Source: a virus
Lineage: Duplodnaviria > Heunggongvirae > Uroviricota > Caudoviricetes
Virus record (IMG/VR): IMGVR_UViG_2851976983_000003
DNA length: 45,144 bases
Reading direction: 5' to 3' (one strand)
Shown here: piece by piece, positions 1,398-39,595 of the stretch
How positions within the stretch are numbered: position 1 is the stretch's first letter
Layout: each line of letters begins with the position of its first letter
Notes under the pieces: model-generated
What the model was told of the DNA's origin: nothing
Seen by the model: only the letters and a program-made list of their open reading frames with translations
Databases searched by the model: none
Translations under genes and position numbers: made by a program

Positions 1398-1427
1398 AAA
1401 TCATGCCATGCAGGCCAGAAACGGCCA

Positions 1428-1453
1428 TTATCTAAAACCTCGGTTTACAGGAA
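1428..1453. other. Inversion crossover site (gix/hix-like, 26 bp), outer boundary of the invertible tail-fibre segment
   Basis: ttatctaaaacctcggtttacaggaa is the reverse complement of a near-identical 26-mer at 4559-4584 (23/26 identical), and lies between the pin fragment and the alternative fibre segment. Confidence 0.65.
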
Positions 1454-1477
1454 ACGGTAAACAGGGCCAGGAACGCC

Positions 1478-2518
1478 GTGCAAAAAACTGGCGATACCTT
1501 GTCCGGTGGGCTTACTTTTGCAAACGACTCAATCCTTGCCTGGATTAGAAATACTGACTGGGCAAAGATTGGTTTTAAAAATGATGCTGACAGCGATACT
1601 GATTCATTCATGTGGTTTGAAACAGGCGACAACGGCAATGAATATTTCAAATGGAGAAGCCGCCAGGGCACCACAACAAAAGACCTGATGAATCTTAAAA
1701 GGGATGCTTTGTATGTTCTTGTTAAAGCCCTTTTCAGCAGTGAAGTAAAAATATCGACAGTCAATGCACTGAGGATTTTTAATTCATCCTTTGGTGCTAT
1801 TTTTCGCCGTTCTGAAGAAAGCCTGTATATCATCCCTACACGAGAAAATGAGGGTGAAAATGGAGATATTGGGCCATTAAGGCCATTCAGCATCGACTTA
1901 AGAACAGGAGTTGTGTCTGTTGGTAATGGTGCCAGGATTGATGGCGGGCTGGCACTTGGCACGAATAACGCGTTGGGTGGGAACTCAATTGTTCTTGGTG
2001 ATAATGATACCGGATTTAAACAGAATGGAGACGGTATTCTTGATGTTTATGCTAATAGTCAGCGTGTATTCCGCTTTCAGAATGGAGTGGCTATTGCTTT
2101 TAAAAATATTCAGGCTGGGGATGGTAAAAAATTTACGCTATCCAGCTCCAACAACTCCACGAAGAACGTAGGGTTTAATTTATGGGGGGCTTCATCAAGA
2201 CCAACTGTTGCAGAGCTTGGTGATGATTCAGGCTGGCATTTCTATAGTCAGCGAAATACAGATAACTCAGTAATATTTGCTGTTAACGGTCAGATACAGC
2301 CCAGCAACTGGGGGAATTTTGATTCCCGCTATGTGAAAGATGTTCGCCTGGGTACGCGTGTTGTTCAATTGATGGCGCGTGGTGGTCGTTATGAAAAAGC
2401 CGGACACGCAATTACCGGATTAAGAATCATTGGTGAAGTAGATGGCGATGATGAAGCCATCTTCAGACCAATACAAAAATACATCAATGGCACATGGTAT
2501 AACGTCGCACAGGTGTAA
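1478..2518 (+). CDS. Alternative side-tail-fibre C-terminal variable segment (Sv'-like); expressed only after inversion fuses it to the stf constant part
   Basis: The frame is open back through the crossover site (…ETVNRARNAVQKTGDTLSGG…) and matches the ETVN junction in the stf C-part; fibre-like Gly/Asn-rich sequence followed directly by a tfa gene. Confidence 0.7.
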   Translation: MQKTGDTLSGGLTFANDSILAWIRNTDWAKIGFKNDADSDTDSFMWFETGDNGNEYFKWRSRQGTTTKDLMNLKRDALYVLVKALFSSEVKISTVNALRIFNSSFGAIFRRSEESLYIIPTRENEGENGDIGPLRPFSIDLRTGVVSVGNGARIDGGLALGTNNALGGNSIVLGDNDTGFKQNGDGILDVYANSQRVFRFQNGVAIAFKNIQAGDGKKFTLSSSNNSTKNVGFNLWGASSRPTVAELGDDSGWHFYSQRNTDNSVIFAVNGQIQPSNWGNFDSRYVKDVRLGTRVVQLMARGGRYEKAGHAITGLRIIGEVDGDDEAIFRPIQKYINGTWYNVAQV

Positions 2519-3049
2519 ATGATGCAGCATTTAAAAAATATTAAGTCAGGAAGTCCAAAAACAAAAGAGCAATATCAGCTAACAAAGAATTTTGATGTTA
2601 TCTGGTTATGGTCCGAAGACGGAAAAAACTGGTATGAGGAAGTGAAGAACTTTCAGCCAGACACCATAAAGATTGTTTACGATGAAAATAATATTATTGT
2701 CGCTATCACCAGAGATGCTTCAACGCTTAATCCTGAAGGTTTTAGCGTTGTTGAGGTTCCTGATATTACCTCCAACCGACGTGCTGACGACTCAGGTAAA
2801 TGGATGTTTAAGGATGGTGCTGTGGTTAAACGGATTTATACGGCTGACGAACAGCAACAACAGGCCGAATCACAAAAGGCCGCGTTACTTTCCGAAGCAG
2901 AAAGCGTTATTCAGCCACTGGAACGCGCTGTCAGGCTGAATATGGCAACAGACGAGGAACGCACACGACTGGAAGCATGGGAACGCTACAGTGTTCTGGT
3001 CAGCCGTGTGGATACGGCAAATCCTGAATGGCCACAAAAGCCTGAATAA
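2519..3049 (+). CDS. tfa: Tail fibre assembly protein (Tfa', partner of the alternative fibre segment)
   Basis: 176 aa; [25 protein letters not shown]… typical Tfa N-terminus and C-terminal [14 protein letters not shown] motif; start overlaps the stop of the preceding gene. Confidence 0.85.
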
Positions 3050-3075
3050 AAATTAAGGCCCGATAGCGGGCCTCG
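3044..3075. terminator. Hairpin between the convergent tfa genes (bidirectional terminator candidate)
   Basis: aggcccg-atag-cgggcct stem-loop flanked by an A/T run. Confidence 0.5.
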
Positions 3076-3077
3076 TC

Positions 3078-3611
3078 TCATTCAGGTTGTTCGGGAAATG
3101 TTACTGGCAGGCTGGAGGTGTCTGTAGATTCGACTTTCTGCGCATAGAGCATCCACTCGGTTAATTTTTGTTTATTCTCGTCGGAAATGATGCCCAGCCG
3201 TAGCTGTGAGTCCCATAGCTGGGTTTTATCCCTGACAAGTTGCAACAGGCTTTGCTTTTCATTCTCTGCCTGCTGCCTCTGTTCCTCTTCGGTATAAGTT
3301 CGCTTTATCACTACGCCATCTTTGAACATCCATTTACCCGAAATATCAGCCCGGCGATTTGCTGTAATATCAGGTAATTCAACGACGCTTGCGCCTTCCG
3401 GATTAATTGCTGAAACATCCTTTTCAATACAAATAATAACGCCGTTATGGTCATAGACCATTTTCAAAGTGTCTGGCCGGAAATTCTTTTGTTCCTCATA
3501 CCAGTTTTTTCCATCATCTGAATAAAGCCATCTGATGTTAAATTGCTTTGTTAGCTGGTATTGCTCTTTTGTTTTAGGATTGCCAGCAGTAATGTTTTTT
3601 AAGTGCATCAT
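3078..3611 (-). CDS. tfa: Tail fibre assembly protein Tfa
   Basis: 177 aa, [24 protein letters not shown]…; directly downstream of the stf C-terminal segment. Confidence 0.85.
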   Translation of the reverse strand: MMHLKNITAGNPKTKEQYQLTKQFNIRWLYSDDGKNWYEEQKNFRPDTLKMVYDHNGVIICIEKDVSAINPEGASVVELPDITANRRADISGKWMFKDGVVIKRTYTEEEQRQQAENEKQSLLQLVRDKTQLWDSQLRLGIISDENKQKLTEWMLYAQKVESTDTSSLPVTFPEQPE

Positions 3612-3613
3612 AA

Positions 3614-7891
<4,278 letters not shown>

Positions 7892-20848: not shown

Positions 20849-21877
20849 TTATTTCACCTGAACCACCACAAACGCGTCCGGATCCGGCAACACCATCAAC
20901 GGCGCAGACTGCGTCATGGTATATTCGCACCCCGGGTCCCCCACCTCTAACCAGTGTTTCGGATAACGAATTGCAGAGGTAATCCCTTCACTCAGCGCCT
21001 GGTTATCCTGGATTGCGCCATAACAACGGACACCCTCCACCTGAGTGTTTCCAAGAATCAGTGTGCCTTCCGGCAGATAACGCTGCTCATCGCCGTTTTC
21101 ATCAACATACGTTGTTTTCGCCACCATGATGGCCAGATCACCGTAATAACCTTTAAAAGAAACCACGGACCCCAAATCTTTCAGCGCGGTTTCCAGTTCA
21201 GATTTTGAGCCACGGCGGGTATCCAGTTTTTCACGAAACAGTTTAAAACCGTTCAGCATACGCCAGACAGTACCGTCCATAATCGCAATATTGATGGTAC
21301 CGGAAGCGAAATCGCAGTACGCATCCAGATCATGCGTTGGATCAAAGGTGTCAGCATTCTGCTGTGACCATTCGCGTCCGCTAGCCTGCGTAATGTTATT
21401 GGCGGCAGAACGCCCAAAATCCACTTCCACCGTCTCAAACTGTTCACCGCTCATGGTGTACTTACCCTGCAGAACAGCGCTGACCGCCTGCATTTCTTCC
21501 ACCTGCACAATCGCCTGTTCTTCCTGTTTCAGGTTGTCAGTCAGAATACGCAGGCGACGGTAGGCCGGGTCATTAAGACGGGCCGGATCTTCCCCCGGAA
21601 GACGCTCCACCGCCTGCTGATAATCCAGCCGGTGTTTTGGTTTAACATAGCCGGGGCGTAACACGCGGGTTTCACCACCACGACTGCGCAGTACCTTACC
21701 TGACACAACCGGAGACACATATGCCGCAACCGGTGTTTTTCCGGTGATTTTATCCAGCATCACTTCCTGAGTATGGAAAGTGACCGTACGACGAAAAAAC
21801 AGCTCCAGAAACAGCGCACGGAATTTCACTTTCTGCTCGGTGTAGCCGAGCAACTGACGCGTGGTAAATAACCCCAT
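20849..21877 (-). CDS. E: Major capsid protein E
   Basis: Start placed at MGLFTTRQLL; strong colinearity with lambda gpE (EEMQAVSAVLQGKYTM…, KLDTRRGS.SELETA…). Confidence 0.9.
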   Translation of the reverse strand: MGLFTTRQLLGYTEQKVKFRALFLELFFRRTVTFHTQEVMLDKITGKTPVAAYVSPVVSGKVLRSRGGETRVLRPGYVKPKHRLDYQQAVERLPGEDPARLNDPAYRRLRILTDNLKQEEQAIVQVEEMQAVSAVLQGKYTMSGEQFETVEVDFGRSAANNITQASGREWSQQNADTFDPTHDLDAYCDFASGTINIAIMDGTVWRMLNGFKLFREKLDTRRGSKSELETALKDLGSVVSFKGYYGDLAIMVAKTTYVDENGDEQRYLPEGTLILGNTQVEGVRCYGAIQDNQALSEGITSAIRYPKHWLEVGDPGCEYTMTQSAPLMVLPDPDAFVVVQVK

Positions 21878-21945
21878 AATTGACTTTCCTTTAAAAACAC
21901 AAACGGGCCGCATCGCGACCCGTTTTTCAGTTAATCACTTCACCA

Positions 21946-22281
21946 TCAGGCGTGGCTGATGGCACTTCCCACAAATGCGTTGGCTTTTTTCACCGCATCC
22001 ACAGAGTCAGGCCAGACCAGCGACTCAGTGGCAAACGTACCGCTTTTGTAGTACGTCAGTGCGAGCTCGGTCCCGGCCAGCGCCAGTGCCAGCACCCCCA
22101 CAGCCGTTCCGGCTTTCTGACCATCCCATGCCACCAGTTTTCCGCTGGCGTCATCCAGCATCAGTGGCGTCAGTGAAGGCGTGGCAACACTGATACCACT
22201 GGTACCTGTTGCGGTATACACCGGATCGCTTCCGGCAAAAATGCGCCTGTCCGCGCGCTTTTCTGTGGTGGTTTTAATCAT
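21946..22281 (-). CDS. D: Head decoration protein D
   Basis: 111 aa, lambda gpD-like (TPLMLDDASGKLVAWDG…YYKSGTF). Confidence 0.9.
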   Translation of the reverse strand: MIKTTTEKRADRRIFAGSDPVYTATGTSGISVATPSLTPLMLDDASGKLVAWDGQKAGTAVGVLALALAGTELALTYYKSGTFATESLVWPDSVDAVKKANAFVGSAISHA

Positions 22282-22318
22282 TTTCAGTCTCCTGATTTAT
22301 CTGAATCACGGATAACGC

Positions 22319-23935
22319 TTACGGCATACTCATCAGCAGATCTTCTTCTCCGTGCCCGGCAGTTCCGCCTCCGGAAACCGCACTGGCAGCATGCTGTGCC
22401 ATAAAGCGATCAAAAAGTGCTTCCTGTGACGGTTGCGATGCCGCCGGTGCGGCTGCCAGCAACGTTTTCGCCTGCGCCACCGTCATTCCCGGTTGTTCTG
22501 CCAGTGCCTGTGCAAGTTGCTTGCGCCCTTTCGCCTCCGGCAGCGCCATAATCTGATCGCCGACACTTGCAGAACCGGCAACCGGTGCCGCCGCCAGTAA
22601 CGTTTTTGCCTGGTCAACGGTCATTCCCGGCTGTTCAGCCAGCGCCTGCGCGAGTTGTTCACGCCCTTTAGCTTCCGGCAACGCCATAATCTGATCGCCT
22701 GCGCCTGCAGCACTGGCAGCAGGGGCTGCCGCCAGAAACGCTTTCGCCTGCTCCACCGTCATCCCAGGTTGACCTGCCAGCATCTGTGCCAGTTGCTCAC
22801 GCCCCTTTGCTTCCGGCAGCGCCATAATCTGATCACCCGTGCTGTCAGTACCGGCAACCGGCGCAGCTGCAAGCAACGTTTTCGCCTGCTCAACCGTCAT
22901 TCCAGGCTGACCTGCCAGCATTTGCGCCAGTTGCTCGCGCCCTTTCGCCTCCTGACAATTCAGGATCCCCATCACGCGCTGATTTTCCTGGGCCACCGCT
23001 TCAGCAACGGTGAGATTTTTAACAGTCATTGCATTCTCCTTCGTAACAGAGTCATTCAGTGCAGAAACCATCACTTCAACGGCATCTGCAGCATTAATCA
23101 GTTGATCAGCCAGACCTGCATCAATGCCTGCCTGACCGTCATAAACGGCAGCCTCGGTATTCATCACCGCCTCTGAACTCAGCCCCGTATAAAGCGCCAC
23201 CTTGTCGACAAACATCCGGCGGGCCTCATCAATACGGCGCTGAAAATCTGCACGCACACCTGCCGGCAATGCCTGAATACTGTTGCCGTCAACCTTGTGC
23301 CGCCCGGAGTAAATCAGCGTGATGTCCACCCCTTCCTGTGCCAGTTGTTTCTCGTAACTGGTGTGCGCCATCATCACACCAATCGAACCAATTTTTGCCG
23401 TCTGCGTGACCAGCCGACGCGTACAGGCTGCCGCCAGCAACATGGCGGCTGAACAGGCCATGTCATTGCACAGCGCCCACACGGGCTTCTGTTCCCGCAG
23501 GCGGTAAATCATGTCAGCACAGTCAAACGCCCCGGCAGCCTGACCGCCCGGGCTGTCGATATCCAGCAAAATGCCGCGCACATCCGGATCATTCACCGCC
23601 ATCTGAAGACGGGCCGTCAGGCCGTCATAACCTGTCATGCCGGAGTAAGGGCGCAGGGTACCCAGTTTATGCACCAGCGTGCCGCTCACCGGCAGAATGG
23701 CGATGCCATTCTTCACCTGGTAACTCTTTGCCGGACGCTGACCACCCGCCATATAGTCAGTCACAGCCAGTTGCATACCATCAGCATCAAGCTGAACAGC
23801 CTGCTGAGGAACAGCAAGGCTGTCGGCCCCTATCTCCTTACCCAGCGCGCAAAAGAAAACCCGCGCATAGGCGGGTTCCAGTAAAAGCGGCTCATTAAAT
23901 GCCATGGCGGCAATATGCGATAAATTACGACGCAT
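22319..23935 (-). CDS. C: Head protease/scaffold C (S49 peptidase) with in-frame Nu3-like scaffold C-terminal region, expanded by tandem repeats
   Basis: N-terminus HIAAMAFNEPLLLEPAYARVFFCAL matches lambda gpC; the C-terminal third carries four tandem ~39-aa units (ALPEAKGREQLAQ.LA.QPGMTV.QAK..LAAAP…GDQIM). Confidence 0.9.
   Translation of the reverse strand: MRRNLSHIAAMAFNEPLLLEPAYARVFFCALGKEIGADSLAVPQQAVQLDADGMQLAVTDYMAGGQRPAKSYQVKNGIAILPVSGTLVHKLGTLRPYSGMTGYDGLTARLQMAVNDPDVRGILLDIDSPGGQAAGAFDCADMIYRLREQKPVWALCNDMACSAAMLLAAACTRRLVTQTAKIGSIGVMMAHTSYEKQLAQEGVDITLIYSGRHKVDGNSIQALPAGVRADFQRRIDEARRMFVDKVALYTGLSSEAVMNTEAAVYDGQAGIDAGLADQLINAADAVEVMVSALNDSVTKENAMTVKNLTVAEAVAQENQRVMGILNCQEAKGREQLAQMLAGQPGMTVEQAKTLLAAAPVAGTDSTGDQIMALPEAKGREQLAQMLAGQPGMTVEQAKAFLAAAPAASAAGAGDQIMALPEAKGREQLAQALAEQPGMTVDQAKTLLAAAPVAGSASVGDQIMALPEAKGRKQLAQALAEQPGMTVAQAKTLLAAAPAASQPSQEALFDRFMAQHAASAVSGGGTAGHGEEDLLMSMP
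22441..22960. repeat. Tandem ~117-bp coding repeats (about 4.5 copies) inside the C/Nu3 scaffold region
   Basis: Recurring nucleotide unit …cggcagcgccataatctgatc…gtcattcc(c/a)gg(c/t)tg… with period ~117 bp; the corresponding lambda segment is single-copy. Confidence 0.7.
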
Positions 23936-25496
23936 CGCCTTTTCCTCCCGTTGTCTGTCGGATCTGCTGCTGAAACGTATCCTTTATCCAGATGGGGCGG
24001 GGAAGACCGGCAGCCTGTCGCTCCTGGCTTTCACGCAGTTGCTGGCGGAAAATCTCCTGATAGTCATCTCCCATCAGGGCCAGCTCCTTCTCGTACGTAC
24101 TCAGGCCACCTTCAATACGCATCACCGCCTCCTGCACCTCCTTAAGGCCATCAATCGCCATGCGGCCGGCACCAATCCACTCGGCACGACACCACCCGGA
24201 ACGGGCCTCCCAGAATGAGAAACGGGATTCCGGCGGGCGGATCACACCGCGAATAAGGGCTTCCTCCAGCCAGCAGGCAAACATCTGTGACGCCAGTCGG
24301 CTGGCCACAAATTTTCGTTTCCCCATAAAATACCGCCACGACTCATTGGCGGATGCCCTGGCACTGGAATAACTGACCTGTGAATAATCACGGGAAAGCT
24401 GCTCATAGGACACGCCCAGTCCGGCAGCAATGTAACGTAACAGCGCCTTTTCCAGTTCAGAGAAACCATTATCCGCATTCTGTGCTGTCTGCAGATTCAG
24501 TGAATCCCCCGGATAAAGATGCGGAATACGAACCCCACCCATCTTTACCGTATTGGTGGCGTAATAGCGCGCATAGCCTTTCATGATGGTGTTCAGGGGA
24601 TTTTTACCGCCATTTCCCACCCCGGCGATATATTCAAATGCTTTTTCCGAATCCAGTGTGGATTCAATCGTCGCGGCATACATCGCCCGCACCACCGCCG
24701 ACTGCAGTTGCGTGGCCTGCAGTGTGTCGAGCATCTTGAGGCGCTCCATCACGGAATAAAACTGGTTGGCCCCGCGCGTCTGTCCGTCCTCCTGTGGCTG
24801 AAACACATGGATCATTCCCGGCCGCCCGGAGGGCAGCGTCGCCGCAATCCGTGTCCAGTTGCTGACACCGTAGCCAGGCCAGTCATCGTTCTGAACATGA
24901 TAAGCCATCGCCTTTCCGTAACGGTTGATTTCCACTCCGGCACGCATAAAACGATCGCCGATGCCATAACCGGGCGTGCTGACGCGCTTCGGACTGATGG
25001 TCTTGAATTTTGTTCTGAATAATGACGTGGATTCCGTATCCCATACGGGCTGGACAAAAATTTCACCGTTAAACGTATGAACGCCCACCCCTTCACGAAT
25101 AAATTCGGTAAACGAACGACGTCCCTCCACATCCATCGAACCAAACACAGGATCGCAATATTCCATCCACGCCGCCTCCACATCTTCAATAAAGGCATGC
25201 GAATCAGCTTCCGACATCCCCAGCCAGCGCCAGTTGGGTCGGTAGCTCAGGCGAAACATGTGGCCGACGATATGGTCTTTATGAATTTCCACAGCATTTG
25301 CGGCAATACCGTTGTTACGGACCAGATCATCCGCACGGGCGTTACCCAGCTGAATGGAAGGTAAGAGCGCCACGTCGGCACTTTCCGGTGCAGGCAGCCA
25401 TTCTGCCATTTGCCCACCGAACCCGGAACCACCACCAGAATATCCCATGCCTTGCCGTAAAGGCTGCCCATGAATATCCACCAGTTCCCCGTTCAC
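23925..25496 (-). CDS. B: Portal protein B
   Basis: 523 aa, lambda gpB-like. Confidence 0.95.
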   Translation of the reverse strand: MNGELVDIHGQPLRQGMGYSGGGSGFGGQMAEWLPAPESADVALLPSIQLGNARADDLVRNNGIAANAVEIHKDHIVGHMFRLSYRPNWRWLGMSEADSHAFIEDVEAAWMEYCDPVFGSMDVEGRRSFTEFIREGVGVHTFNGEIFVQPVWDTESTSLFRTKFKTISPKRVSTPGYGIGDRFMRAGVEINRYGKAMAYHVQNDDWPGYGVSNWTRIAATLPSGRPGMIHVFQPQEDGQTRGANQFYSVMERLKMLDTLQATQLQSAVVRAMYAATIESTLDSEKAFEYIAGVGNGGKNPLNTIMKGYARYYATNTVKMGGVRIPHLYPGDSLNLQTAQNADNGFSELEKALLRYIAAGLGVSYEQLSRDYSQVSYSSARASANESWRYFMGKRKFVASRLASQMFACWLEEALIRGVIRPPESRFSFWEARSGWCRAEWIGAGRMAIDGLKEVQEAVMRIEGGLSTYEKELALMGDDYQEIFRQQLRESQERQAAGLPRPIWIKDTFQQQIRQTTGGKGDAS

Positions 25497-30990: not shown

Positions 30991-31065
<75 letters not shown>

Positions 31066-31068
31066 ATA

Positions 31069-31144
<76 letters not shown>

Positions 31145-31224: not shown

Positions 31225-31300
31225 TGGTGGCCCTTGCTGGATTTGAACCAGCGACCTGGCGATTATGAGTCGCTCGCTCTCACCACTGAGCTAAAGGGCC
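31225..31300 (-). tRNA. tRNA-Ile2/Met-type (anticodon CAU; ileZ/ileX-like)
   Basis: 76-nt cloverleaf, acceptor ggccctt/aagggcc, anticodon loop ctcataa, T-loop ttcaaat, CCA. Confidence 0.8.
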
Positions 31301-31349: not shown

Positions 31350-32399
31350 TCAAACGATTAAATCCTGAACTTCCCTGACTGTCTGTTCAAAACGTCCTGT
31401 CTCCAGCTCAACACCAATCGCACAACGCCCCAGTGCCATCGCCGCTTTTACCGTTGAACCTGAACCCATAAAAAAATCTGCAACCAGGTCTCCCGGACGA
31501 CTGCTCGCGTTGATTATCTGCTGCAGCATTTCTGCCGGTTTTTCGCACGGATGTTTCCCTGGATAGTACTGCACCGGTTTATGCGTCCAGACATCGGTGT
31601 ACGGAACCTGCGCCGTCACACCGAAATACCGCCGCAAATTTTTATATTCACTCAGCAATTCCGTATACTGCCGGTTCAGCTCACTGTATGTGCTGACCAG
31701 CTGGTGGTGTGGTTTTTCCAGTTCCCCGCGCTGATGTTTTTCTGCCGCAACACGCGCAAACAACGCCTGCAATTTGTTGTAATCACCCTCGTTCGGTAAC
31801 TGCCACTGACTGGTACCAAACCAGTGCGAAGCCATGTTTTTCTTTCCGGTGGCTTCCGCTATCTGTTTTGACGTTATTCCCAGTGATTTACGCGCATCAC
31901 GAAAGTAAGAAATCAGCGGGGCCATGACGTGCTGTTTTAGCTCGCGCCCCTGTGCCACATAGCCATCATCTTTCGGGCGATACGGTCCCTGATAATGTTC
32001 TGCAAACAGAATGCGCTCTGTTGCCGGAAAATACGCCCGCAGACTTTCCTTATTGCACCCGTTCCAGCGTCCGGACGGCTTCGCCCAGATAATGTGGTTC
32101 AGCACATTAAAGCGCTCACGCATCATGATTTCGGTGTCAGATGCCAGGCGATGACCACAGAACAGGTAAAGACTTCCGGCAGGCTTCAGTACCCGCCAGA
32201 ACTGCGCCAGACACTGGTCCAGCCATTTCAGGTAATCATCGTCGCCCTCCCACTGGTTATCCCAGCCCTCGGGCTTCACTTTAAAGTATGGCGGGTCTGT
32301 GACTATCAGATCGACAGAGTTTTCCGGTAAGGTCTGGATAAATTTCAGGCAATCAGCGTTGATTAACTCACAACTGGATATTTTTACAGTATTAGTCAT
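31350..32399 (-). CDS. Orphan DNA methyltransferase (N6-adenine/N4-cytosine, DPPY motif)
   Basis: 349 aa; IVTDPPYF catalytic motif near the N-terminus and FMGSGST SAM-binding motif near the C-terminus; no adjacent restriction endonuclease gene. Confidence 0.85.
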   Translation of the reverse strand: MTNTVKISSCELINADCLKFIQTLPENSVDLIVTDPPYFKVKPEGWDNQWEGDDDYLKWLDQCLAQFWRVLKPAGSLYLFCGHRLASDTEIMMRERFNVLNHIIWAKPSGRWNGCNKESLRAYFPATERILFAEHYQGPYRPKDDGYVAQGRELKQHVMAPLISYFRDARKSLGITSKQIAEATGKKNMASHWFGTSQWQLPNEGDYNKLQALFARVAAEKHQRGELEKPHHQLVSTYSELNRQYTELLSEYKNLRRYFGVTAQVPYTDVWTHKPVQYYPGKHPCEKPAEMLQQIINASSRPGDLVADFFMGSGSTVKAAMALGRCAIGVELETGRFEQTVREVQDLIV

Positions 32400-32966: not shown

Positions 32967-33710
32967 CTAATCTGACGTCACACGCACCATTATACTTACT
33001 AAAGAAAAGTCATCATCAGGTCCGGCTCTCTCTATACGACGCAAAATGCCATTAGAAAACTTCTGACTATTACTCATCGTATTTGATGTAAATCTGGGGC
33101 GTTTTTCCCAAACGTTATGAACCCCATCAGACATGATACACAGATGATATACCCCGTTAATACTAGGTAAATCTTTCCATGTGATAAAATCACAGTCGTA
33201 TTCCATATCAACATTTGAGGCTATAGCCGTCGTTAAGATATTTTTGCCCGGTTTATCCTTCAAATCTCTGGGTTTAAAAATATTCTGATCAATTAGCATC
33301 TGATGCCTGGTATCGTCCTTCGTCAATTGGTATGCTTTCTTCTCTCCAATGCAATACAAACGACAATCACCAATATGACCAATAATAATTCCGCTATCAC
33401 AAACATAACAAAACGTAAGTGTAGTAGCAGCTTTATCGAACTCATCATTAACATCAGCTAACGACATAACCTTTCGCTTAACTTCATCAAATACATCCGG
33501 AACTGTGTCAAAAGATAAGCTTGTCAATGCTGAAAGTTCAGCAATTGCCATTGATGAAGCCTGACTGGCACCAGTGTATGAACCTACACCATCAGCTACG
33601 GCAAATAAGATGCCATCCCCTACAATTTTGGGAGGAAGCAATGAATCTTCGTTGACCCTACCTGGTTCTTTTGGATACGAGAATGATGAAGTCGCTATCA
33701 GCTGAATCAT
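32967..33710 (-). CDS. PP2C-family Ser/Thr protein phosphatase
   Basis: 247 aa; PP2C motifs AVADGVGS, GDCRLY, SDGV and a C-terminal acidic DDD cluster; start ATG overlaps the kinase stop (ATGA). Confidence 0.8.
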   Translation of the reverse strand: MIQLIATSSFSYPKEPGRVNEDSLLPPKIVGDGILFAVADGVGSYTGASQASSMAIAELSALTSLSFDTVPDVFDEVKRKVMSLADVNDEFDKAATTLTFCYVCDSGIIIGHIGDCRLYCIGEKKAYQLTKDDTRHQMLIDQNIFKPRDLKDKPGKNILTTAIASNVDMEYDCDFITWKDLPSINGVYHLCIMSDGVHNVWEKRPRFTSNTMSNSQKFSNGILRRIERAGPDDDFSLVSIMVRVTSD

Positions 33711-34471
33711 GACTCACTCCTTAAAAAAGAATGCACAAAATCAAACGCCACATCATCTATTGTCTGATATCTATCATCTTTATCCATCCTGGTACACTTC
33801 GCTATGATAGGCTTTATTTTTTTATCATCTAAATTTAAGTCCTCAATTAACCGCCCCACCGCATAAACATCAGTCTTAACTGAATACTCGGCATTATATA
33901 AAATCTCGGGAGCCATATATCTTGTACTTCCCATACGGGTACCGATCTCGGTCAATTTAGTGGTATCCCCTTCGGGATTTGTATCTTTTACCAGACCAAA
34001 ATCAGACACCTTGTATGTTCCGTCGCTAAATCGCAAGACATTAAATGGTTTTATATCTCTGTGTAAATAGCCTTTCGCATGGATGTGAGCTACACCATCT
34101 AATACCATTTTCACTATTGAAATTTTTTGATCTGTTGTAAGAAGGTTGTTCGTTATTTCGTGCTCAAGATCACATTCTGCTTTATCCATAATGAACCATG
34201 GATTCTCGGCAAACAAATCGCACAAATAAATAGGAACAATATTGCTATGTACGCAATGTGATTGATACACGACCTCCCTTTTAAAACGCCTTCTAAACTG
34301 CTCTATTTGCGCCAAAAGCTCTGGTTTTTCGGGGGCTAAAACCTTTCTAGCATAATCCCCACATTCACCCTTGTTGAGGTTGTAAACCTTAACGTGTTCA
34401 ACAAAGCCAAATGCACCCCTTCCAATCAACTGAATTCGTTTTATAAAGTAATTACCGTGCTGTTCTTCCAT
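33707..34471 (-). CDS. Hanks-type (eukaryotic-like) Ser/Thr protein kinase
   Basis: Complete catalytic motif set: G-loop GRGAFG, lysine in YARKV, HRDIKPFN catalytic loop, DFG, APE (YMAPE), DVYAVG. Start placed at MEEQHGNYF; the ORF track starts 25 codons upstream. AT-rich. Confidence 0.85.
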   Translation of the reverse strand: MEEQHGNYFIKRIQLIGRGAFGFVEHVKVYNLNKGECGDYARKVLAPEKPELLAQIEQFRRRFKREVVYQSHCVHSNIVPIYLCDLFAENPWFIMDKAECDLEHEITNNLLTTDQKISIVKMVLDGVAHIHAKGYLHRDIKPFNVLRFSDGTYKVSDFGLVKDTNPEGDTTKLTEIGTRMGSTRYMAPEILYNAEYSVKTDVYAVGRLIEDLNLDDKKIKPIIAKCTRMDKDDRYQTIDDVAFDFVHSFLRSES

Positions 34472-34544
34472 TAAGCTCACCGACCTAAATTGTAAGAATA
34501 TCCATATCTTACAACTACAGATAAAAAGGTCCACAGAGTTAAGC

Positions 34545-34569
34545 AAAAAACCCGCATTTAAGCGGGTTT
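34545..34569 (-). terminator. Rho-independent terminator just downstream of the Q-like gene (tR'-like candidate)
   Basis: Minus strand aaacccgc-ttaaat-gcgggttt followed by TTTTGCTT. Confidence 0.55.
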
Positions 34570-37753: not shown

Positions 37754-38080
37754 ATGACTAAAAATACTCGTTTTTCCCCCGAAGTCCGTCAGCGGGCGAT
37801 TCGTATGGTTCTGGAAAGTCAGGATGAATATGACTCACAGTGGGCGGCAATTTGTTCCATTGCCCCAAAGATTGGCTGTACGCCGGAGACTCTGCGTGTC
37901 TGGGTTCGCCAGCATGAGCGGGATACCGGGGGCGGTGATGGTGGGCTCACCAGCGCTGAACGTCAGCGTCTGAAAGAGCTGGAACGTGAAAATCGTGAAC
38001 TGCGCCGCAGTAACGATATCCTTCGCCAGGCTTCCGCTTATTTTGCGAAGGCGGAGTTCGACCGCCTCTGGAAAAAATGA
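37754..38080 (+). CDS. IS3-family transposase OrfA (HTH/leucine zipper)
   Basis: 108 aa, [50 protein letters not shown]…. Confidence 0.9.
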
Positions 38081-38967
38081 TGCCACTGCTGGATAAGCTG
38101 CGTGAGCAGTACGGGGTCGGACCGGTATGCAGCGAACTGCATATTGCCCCGTCAACGTATTACCATTGTCAGCAACAGCGACATCATCCGGATAAACGCA
38201 GTGCCCGTGCGCAGCACGACGACTGGCTGAAGAGAGAGATACAGCGCGTATACGATGAAAATCATCAGGTGTACGGTGTGCGTAAAGTCTGGCGTCAGTT
38301 GTTACGGGAAGGAATCAGGGTGGCCAGATGTACAGTGGCACGTCTCATGGCGGTTATGGGACTTGCCGGTGTTCTCCGGGGTAAAAAGGTCCGTACGACC
38401 ATCAGCCGGAAAGCCGTTGCCGCAGGCGACCGCGTAAACCGTCAGTTCGTGGCAGAACGACCTGACCAGCTGTGGGTGGCTGATTTTACTTACGTCAGCA
38501 CATGGCAGGGCTTCGTCTATGTGGCGTTTATCATTGATGTGTTTGCCGGATACATCGTGGGGTGGCGGGTCTCATCGTCTATGGAAACGACATTCGTGCT
38601 GGATGCGCTGGAGCAGGCGTTGTGGGCCCGTCGTCCGTCTGGCACCATCCATCACAGCGATAAAGGCTCTCAGTATGTGTCACTGGCCTATACGGAGCGA
38701 CTAAAAGAAGCCGGATTACTGGCATCAACAGGGAGTACAGGCGACTCGTATGACAACGCGATGGCTGAGAGCATCAATGGTCTTTACAAAGCGGAGGTAA
38801 TACACCGTAAGAGCTGGAAAAACCGTGCAGAAGTGGAACTGGCCACACTAACGTGGGTGGACTGGTATAACAATCGACGATTGCTGGGAAGGCTGGGCCA
38901 TACTCCTCCGGCAGAAGCAGAAAAAGCTTATTATGCTTCCATCGGAAACGATGATCTGGCAGCCTGA
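38077..38967 (+). CDS. IS3-family transposase OrfB (DDE integrase core)
   Basis: 296 aa with DDE/rve-type core (…WVADFTYV…HHSDKGSQY…DNAMAES…); overlaps orfA. Confidence 0.9.
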
Positions 38968-39149: not shown

Positions 39150-39305
39150 TTACTCCTCAGGTTCGTAAGCTGTGAAGACAGCGACCTCCGTCTGGCCGGT
39201 TCGGATTCGTACCTCGCAGAGGTCTTTCCTCGTTACCAGTGCCGTCACTATGACGGTTAAACAGATGACGATCAGGGCGATTAACATCGCCTTTTGCTGC
39301 TTCAT
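39150..39305 (-). CDS. hok: Hok/Gef-family type I toxin (HokD-like)
   Basis: 51 aa MKQQKAMLIALIVICLTVIVTALVTRKDLCEVRIRTGQTEVAVFTAYEPEE, a canonical Hok sequence; the in-frame upstream extension in the ORF track (39150-39362) could be a mok-like leader frame. Confidence 0.85.
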   Translation of the reverse strand: MKQQKAMLIALIVICLTVIVTALVTRKDLCEVRIRTGQTEVAVFTAYEPEE

Positions 39306-39595
39306 AGCCTGCTTCTCCTTGCCTTTCGGCACGTAAGAGGCTAACCTAGATTTGCCGTTCATAGATTGAGCCTCAGATTAATGTTAAGCGTCTTGCAGGA
39401 CGCGTAATGTTAACTGGGGCTTTTCTCTATCTGCCTTTGGTGTTCATGCCTGAGACAGATAGCCTCAAGCACCCGCAGCAATTCTACTTAACTCCCCTTT
39501 CACTGCAAACCGTTTTTATCCCCAGCGGCAAATCGAATACACAACAAGTGCTACCGCCATTGCAATTCCTGTCGTTGTGAATGCCTCCGGCCAGG

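Follow-up and report, generated by a model that had tools for sequence, protein, structure and literature searches.

The locus described here is a prohead protease/scaffold gene on the minus strand of IMGVR_UViG_2851976983_000003, a 45,144-nucleotide (nt) stretch of tailed-phage DNA (hereafter, the window) that is identical to part of the chromosome of E. coli 503025 (NZ_CP025892.1). The product of its open reading frame (ORF), 538 residues in length, contains four tandem, in-frame copies of a small module close to its C-terminus. The corresponding lambda protein, gpC (439 residues), has a single copy, found at residues 360-399 only; both protein lengths and the single lambda copy agree with an earlier note that had been made from this DNA alone. 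The four-copy array is old and under purifying selection, and it belongs to a series of alleles with one to five units.

That this is a C/Nu3-type prohead protease-scaffold gene, as the earlier note had also proposed, we regard as nearly certain. Residues 146-290 match the Pfam family PF01343 (Peptidase_S49) with an expectation value (E) of 2.9e-33, above the curated cut-off, the protein has a hit to PHROG 53 ('head maturation protease') at E 5.5e-218, and the SppA structures 3rst and 4kwb match the protease at E 1e-16. Ser162 of the window protein aligns with Ser166 of lambda gpC, the catalytic residue of that protease. The first 290 residues are about 75% identical to phage 21 gp5, and identity to lambda gpC is 54%. 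Genes for terminase, head-tail joining, portal, protease, decoration and major capsid proteins follow one another as in the C/gp5-type protease class; in this lambdoid prophage the protease gene has the portal gene on one side and the decoration and capsid genes on the other. Identity of the capsid protein to phage 21 gp7 is 83.5%, against 58% to lambda gpE; judged by these comparisons, the head module belongs to the phage 21 type and not to the lambda type. In NZ_CP025892.1, RefSeq labels the product simply 'S49 family peptidase' (WP_001716441.1).

The tandem in-frame repeat was recovered where the earlier note had placed it, with Tandem Repeats Finder reporting an array at 22444-22952 with a period of 138 base pairs (bp), 3.7 copies, 80% matches, zero indels and a score of 591. 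Autocorrelation over 22427-22978, expressed as the fraction of identical bases, has values of 0.742 (lag 138) and 0.714 (lag 276), with 0.396 as the maximum over all lags in 500 dinucleotide-preserving shuffles. The repeat is real and far above chance, and its true period is 138 bp, or 46 residues. The period of about 117 bp (39 residues) suggested previously was ruled out, the autocorrelation at that lag (0.308) being at background level; some 40 residues is the length of the core alone. The full period is 46 residues rather than about 40 because each conserved core has a variable linker behind it, made up of 6-8 Ala, Gly, Ser or Thr residues.

At the protein level, four full units start at residues 320, 366, 412 and 458, with the core consensus xGDQIMALPEAKGREQLAQxLAxQPGMTVxQAKxLLAAAP, and units 2-4 share 82-93% protein identity. 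The 'four and a half' copies of the earlier note are thus four full units plus a half that is probably explained by the start of the C-terminal tail, ALFDRFMAQH, which in the alignment resembles the first helix of a unit and has the appearance of a degenerate stub. The end of the tail, DLLxxxP, is common to lambda (DLLNTPV) and phage 21 (MLMAMP), whatever the number of units. An RNA- or DNA-level element was ruled out: an Rfam search of the array gave no match, promoter- and terminator-like sites in 21800-24200 showed no excess over shuffle expectation, and the differences between units lie mainly at codon position 3. A 173-residue ORF on the plus strand (22655-23176) was likewise rejected as a gene and is best read as a by-product of GC-rich repeated codons.

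The array is old and protein-coding, and every one of its units is under purifying selection. The four units are 64-78% identical in nucleotide sequence and 65-85% identical in amino acid sequence, and their Nei-Gojobori proportions of synonymous differences (pS) are 0.52-0.63, near saturation and comparable to the 0.57 obtained between the protease domains of the window and phage 21. The ratio of nonsynonymous to synonymous substitution (dN/dS) between units is 0.03-0.43, 113 of the 178 differences between unit cores fall at codon position 3 of the minus-strand frame, and the longest exact match between window units is 23 nt. Positional orthologues across alleles are 95-99% identical, whereas paralogous units within one gene show 64-78% identity. 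It is because of this combination of near-saturated pS, low dN/dS, third-position differences, short exact matches and orthologues closer than paralogues that we consider the array both old and selected. In comparison with VG35A2, a relative with four units and 88% nucleotide identity, dN/dS is 0.13 for the repeat region and 0.11 for the protease domain. Furthermore, core positions A11, G13, A18 and A22 are invariant from enterobacteria to Bradyrhizobium, and E10, R14 and L17, among others, are nearly so.

The distribution of the gene was surveyed in 5,426 complete E. coli genomes. The lambda-type gene with one unit (1320 bp) occurs in 3,141 of them, the phage 21-type gene with three units (1506 bp) in 1,866, the four-unit type of the window (1617 bp) in about 95, and a five-unit type (1755 bp, 584 residues) in nine, all of them Shiga toxin-producing E. 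coli (STEC). Among the matches listed, four-unit genes measure 1608-1618 bp, and the length of 1617 bp is fixed in lineages up to 12% apart in nucleotide sequence; the window sequence itself is 99.9-100% identical in four complete genomes. The four-unit gene, present in so many complete genomes, and the three units of both phage 21 and Gifsy-1 are not compatible with a private or recent expansion. A narrower species-wide alignment survey yielded only four loci, with match lengths fitting three units (not individually counted), and the second copy in UMNF18 was ruled out as a copy-number allele, being a truncated remnant beside a pseudogene. The four-unit type was absent from a 50,697-record phage collection, in which the best protein identity was 67%.

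Close relatives of the window differ in the number of units. The five-unit allele of STEC005 and eight other STEC (WP_250696612.1) is 98% identical to the window in the protease domain and 97% in the capsid protein; window units 1, 3 and 4 have their positional orthologues in its units 1, 4 and 5, and the extra unit is a recent duplication of unit 2, with units 2 and 3 being 96% identical at the nucleotide level and containing a 144-nt exact repeat. A scan of IMG/VR returned 430 related stretches, and unit counts from the best 80 of these gave two units in two, three in 32, four in 45 and five in one. Within the clade of the window (capsid protein 94-100% and protease domain at least 93% identical) we find two units in L064 and L065, three in L057, L059 and L062, and five in L054 (IMGVR_UViG_2547132418_000009, 2501-3346), in the last of which three internal units are identical in DNA and an exact repeat extends over 353 nt. 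Because close relatives with a nearly identical capsid protein have two, three or five units, some of them DNA-identical, we conclude that unequal recombination or slippage between sufficiently similar units alters copy number, without change in the capsid protein. An association of more units with a different or larger capsid found no support, the alleles with two to five units sharing a 342-residue capsid protein that is 94-100% identical.

In L054 and in STEC005 (L004, 1501-3255), the long exact repeats make copy numbers from short reads unreliable, and deletion or expansion is expected to be frequent. The assembly-collapse hazard raised in the earlier note is hence real for sister alleles, with their exact repeats of 144 and 353 nt, and low for the window allele, in which no exact repeat exceeds 23 nt.

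A profile of the unit was also searched against 1.84 billion representative proteins, resulting in 1,550 matches. In most of them a single unit lies close to the C-terminus of an S49 peptidase of about 430-530 residues or in a short stand-alone protein; a recount in the best 150 of the 1,550 gave one unit in 135, two in 11 and three in three, the remaining match falling below the recount thresholds. Stand-alone proteins of 160-230 residues from the alpha-proteobacteria Bradyrhizobium and Afipia (P0071, P0078, P0079 and P0088) contain two copies each, and duplication of the module has therefore occurred far from enterobacterial phages. We found no description of the four-unit allele, of the series of one to five copies or of several copy numbers with one capsid protein, in literature searches that were of little yield.

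Just upstream of the array, an internal ATG at 23029 lies in frame and is preceded by a Shine-Dalgarno sequence, both being colinear with their annotated counterparts in phage 21 gene 6, which is equivalent to Nu3. The predicted second product should be a Nu3/gp6-like scaffold of 236 residues carrying all four units. With ribosome binding site and start codon in this position, the array is therefore expected in both the 56-kDa protease and the 24-kDa scaffold. ORFs of about 200 residues starting here are often called by gene callers elsewhere (e.g. P0003, P0009, P0012 and P0096). The lambda Nu3 start, Met239 of gpC, lies inside the protease domain and is not kept in the window, where the aligned residue is Ile. 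RefSeq has no nested scaffold gene at 22319-23029 despite the strong Shine-Dalgarno sequence and ATG, and the same is true of the other E. coli records examined.

Structural predictions with AlphaFold2 give the single unit three helices, the first short and the next two longer, with a predicted local distance difference test score (pLDDT) of 82 and a predicted template modelling score (pTM) of 0.51. In the predicted 236-residue product, the helical units have pLDDT values of about 85-90 and the linkers values below 50, with a pTM of 0.28; the model predicts a beads-on-a-string arrangement in which the geometry between units is not fixed. No solved structure related to the unit by sequence was found. 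The only strong sequence match, the 'CAP REPEAT' of 8vd6, was rejected as a relative, each of its repeats giving a short, generic helix-turn match (profile positions 18-35; 7.4 bits, individual E-value 39).

The coordinates of the gene, its predicted nested product, the units and the neighbouring head genes are collected in Table 1. A strong terminator-like hairpin with 11 pairs, seven of them G-C, followed by a T-run, lies at 21901-21925 on the minus strand, between the decoration and major capsid genes inside the late operon; it may be an element of mRNA stability or attenuation.

Table 1. Features of the protease/scaffold gene and the adjoining head genes (window coordinates).
Feature	Position	Strand	Remarks
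Portal gene	23925..25496	(-)	lambda B homologue, 62% identical; 3' end overlaps protease gene start by 11 nt
Prohead protease/scaffold gene	22319..23935	(-)	homologous to lambda C and to gene 5 of phage 21; 538 residues, 56.1 kDa
Peptidase S49 catalytic domain (residues 146-290)	23066..23500	(-)	PF01343, SppA structure matches
Shine-Dalgarno AAGGAG, 6 nt upstream of internal ATG	23036..23041	(-)	sequence reading TTACGAAGGAGAATGCAATGACT
Nested in-frame scaffold ORF, Nu3/phage 21 gp6-like, start Met303	22319..23029	(-)	236 residues, 23.9 kDa, isoelectric point 4.9; predicted from sequence
Unit 1 (residues 320-365)	22841..22978	(-)	RVMGILNCQEAKGREQLAQMLAGQPGMTVEQAKTLLAAAP + linker VAGTDS; orthologue of single lambda unit
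Unit 2 (residues 366-411)	22703..22840	(-)	recently duplicated in five-unit STEC005 allele
Unit 3 (residues 412-457)	22565..22702	(-)	96% nucleotide identity with STEC005 unit 4, its positional orthologue
Unit 4 (residues 458-503)	22427..22564	(-)	tandem in-frame unit
Conserved C-terminal tail (residues 504-538)	22322..22426	(-)	QEALFDRFMAQH...EEDLLMSMP
Head decoration gene	21946..22281	(-)	lambda D/phage 21 shp homologue
Major capsid protein gene	20849..21877	(-)	342 residues; presumed assembly partner of scaffold

Outside the head genes, the window contains several other features of prophages, and the prophage itself runs past the left end of the annotated stretch of about 50 kb. A serine/threonine protein kinase gene (33707-34546; 765 bp in RefSeq) is followed by a PP2C-family phosphatase gene (32967-33710), both on the minus strand and just downstream of the Q antiterminator gene, the usual 'moron' position in prophages. 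A DNA methyltransferase gene (31350-32399, minus strand) and then tRNA genes at 31228-31300, 31072-31144 and 30994-31065 (Ile, Thr and Gly) lie upstream of the lysis genes, in the slot occupied by the Shiga toxin in Stx phages; the toxin gene is absent here. The early region contains an IS1203 transposase of the IS3 family (about 37754-38967), with an Rfam match to the ALIL frameshift pseudoknot at 38035-38151, adjoined by a hokD/sok toxin-antitoxin locus (sok at 39300-39474). At the tail-fibre end (about 1400-3700), opposed tail-fibre-assembly genes, truncated tail-fibre fragments and a 64-residue recombinase remnant look like a decayed invertible segment, and an Rfam match to the IS009 small RNA (129 bits) lies at 41-244 on the minus strand, near the chromosomal end of the window.

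Taken together, these data are best explained, in our judgement with a better than even chance, by an old and selected array of four modules in the protease and scaffold that serve as multivalent contact points, the single lambda copy being the founding unit. The binding mechanism itself we hold more tentatively, at slightly less than an even chance. According to it, the modules, as beads on flexible linkers, would provide redundant, multivalent protein-protein contacts, tethering the scaffold and the protease to the inner capsid shell, to each other or to both, until the protease destroyed them after completion of the shell. Unequal recombination or slippage between units would alter the number of modules, at least two to five of which would be tolerated with the same capsid protein. 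For the lambda scaffold Nu3 and protease gpC, Nu3-E, Nu3-Nu3, Nu3-B and C-Nu3 interactions have been recorded (PMC3224144), and in other phages small helical scaffold motifs contact the N-arm of the capsid protein (PMC11922011).

Several points weigh against this explanation. Fold searches with the predicted unit gave nothing significant, and confidence in the structure predictions is moderate; that the internal start is used is read from the sequence alone; and the alleles with two and three units, together with one of those with five, come from IMG/VR contigs of unknown assembly quality. A binding partner of the unit was not found here or in the literature searched, the phage 21 record (M81255) stating 'function unknown', and the tolerance of two to five units could equally mean that single units matter little. 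In addition, lambda gpNu3 is reportedly intrinsically disordered, going by the title of a 2011 study by Medina and colleagues, which sits uneasily with a folded mini-domain.

The reported disorder would suit units that act as a passive spacer or ruler, determining how long or bulky a mostly disordered scaffold is, without any specific partner, while the C-terminal tail targets the capsid. The low predicted confidence of the linkers and the pTM of 0.28 for the whole scaffold point in the same direction, as do the conservation of the DLLxxxP tail from lambda to the window, independent of unit number, and the range of copy numbers tolerated with the same capsid protein. The 40-residue core is, however, tightly held, with between-unit dN/dS values down to 0.03-0.07, an orthologous value of 0.13 and invariant positions, the single unit is predicted with a pLDDT of 82, and only the linkers of 6-8 residues are spacer-like. 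The conservation of the core in the face of free linkers therefore argues against a pure spacer, which we deem rather unlikely. The modules might instead serve self-association, mediating scaffold-scaffold or scaffold-protease oligomerisation and not capsid binding, with more units resulting in higher-order networks. This is consistent with the Nu3-Nu3 and C-Nu3 interactions reported for lambda and with protease and predicted scaffold having the whole array in common, but the interacting regions are unmapped in that report (PMC3224144), and the present data do not separate self-association from capsid binding. We count it as a sub-case of the multivalent contact explanation with a different partner, and give it, as such, a fairly low probability.

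The remaining alternatives concern the origin of the repeat rather than its function. The earlier note had offered replication slippage, which would make the array something that arose lately in this strain or prophage and is either neutral or slightly deleterious, and fresh events of this kind are indeed seen in sister alleles, as the 144-nt exact repeat of STEC005 and the 353-nt repeat of L054 attest. In the window, however, the units are 64-78% identical, near-saturated at synonymous sites (pS 0.52-0.63), under purifying selection and without any exact match above 23 nt, and the gene has kept its 1617 bp across lineages up to 12% apart; a recent slippage product is refuted for the four units of the window, and we regard it as very improbable overall. 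An assembly artefact, in the form of a mis-joined or over-expanded repeat, has next to no probability. Repeats can mis-assemble, and draft contigs do end inside the array (P0005 and P0007), but the sequence recurs at 99.9-100% identity in four complete genomes, and genes of the same length are found in about 95 genomes from many laboratories. Furthermore, the units are too diverged to confuse an assembler, the frame is intact, and the differences follow the codon-position-3 pattern. The two outcomes that the earlier note had singled out as fatal to its claim, an artefact and a uniform copy number in all relatives, were thus not observed, relatives having one, two, three, four or five units.

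A more speculative extension of the multivalent contact explanation, to which we attach little probability, is that the number of modules is an evolvable dial on scaffold valency, with one to five capsid-contact modules of identical function altering how many capsid subunits are bridged per scaffold or protease molecule. If this were true, nucleation rate, scaffold:capsid stoichiometry and protease loading would shift with unit number, and gain or loss of units by unequal recombination would give lambdoid phages a rapid way to readjust head assembly once head genes had been swapped with other phages. One shared binding surface would then account for the near-identity of units 2-4 as proteins in the face of saturated synonymous sites.

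The locus is otherwise ordinary, since the kind of repeat is known (the Tri boxes of phage 21) and E. coli prophages very commonly carry genes of this family. Its interest lies in the scaffold-capsid contacts of lambda-type phages, for which the alleles with one to five units, several of them combined with a capsid protein that hardly changes, offer a naturally occurring series and hence a ready test of module function and scaffold valency. In practical terms, RefSeq gives such genes no name beyond 'S49 family peptidase', and short-read assemblies can miscount the units of alleles in which these are DNA-identical.

Comparison with known systems places the feature among the scaffolds of lambdoid phages. 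The coat-binding domain at the C-terminus of P22 gp8, a helix-turn-helix, offers a functional analogy only, as a small helical scaffold module that contacts the capsid protein (PMC11922011); no sequence likeness or significant structural likeness between it and the unit was found, and the P22 motif is single and terminal, whereas the module of the window is repeated, internal and fused to a protease in one of its two predicted products. Lambda shares with the window an S49 protease with the conserved serine (Ser166 in lambda, Ser162 in the window) and the C-terminal DLLxxxP tail, and its protease and scaffold genes, encoding gpC and gpNu3, overlap and have a common C-terminus, as is predicted for the window. 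It differs from the window in having exactly one unit instead of four, preceded by an extra insert of about 30 residues (28 alignment columns) without counterpart in the window, and in its annotated scaffold start at Met239, that of the window being predicted at the phage 21 position, Met303. The Salmonella prophage Gifsy-1 encodes a 'Lambda gpC homolog', STM2605, with the same architecture as the window gene, in which three units are positional orthologues of those of phage 21; unlike the window protein, it has 498 residues and three units, and its protease domain is about 68% identical.

The closest counterpart is phage 21 itself. Text searches of the literature gave nothing usable on Tri boxes or on a domain map of Nu3, and the phage 21 record M81255 annotates the boxes as repeat_regions, three in all, named 'Tri1 box', 'Tri box' and 'Tri3 box' and described as 'function unknown; putative'. 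A hidden Markov model of the unit, built from the window only, matches phage 21 gp5 at residues 321-355, 369-406 and 416-451 with 43-56 bits each, and these matches coincide with the annotated boxes, which correspond to residues 324-358, 371-407 and 418-455. In this comparison, unit identities are 47-80%. Phage 21 genes 5 and 6 occupy, as in the window, the position after the portal gene and before those for the decoration and capsid proteins; they contain homologous units in an in-frame tandem with a spacing of about 140 bp, and their nested internal start has a predicted counterpart in the window. In phage 21, in contrast, the units number three and are mutually only 47-53% identical, and the protein has 501 residues instead of 538. 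On the evidence of these alignments, the array of the window is a variant of the Tri box repeat of phage 21 that has four units instead of three.

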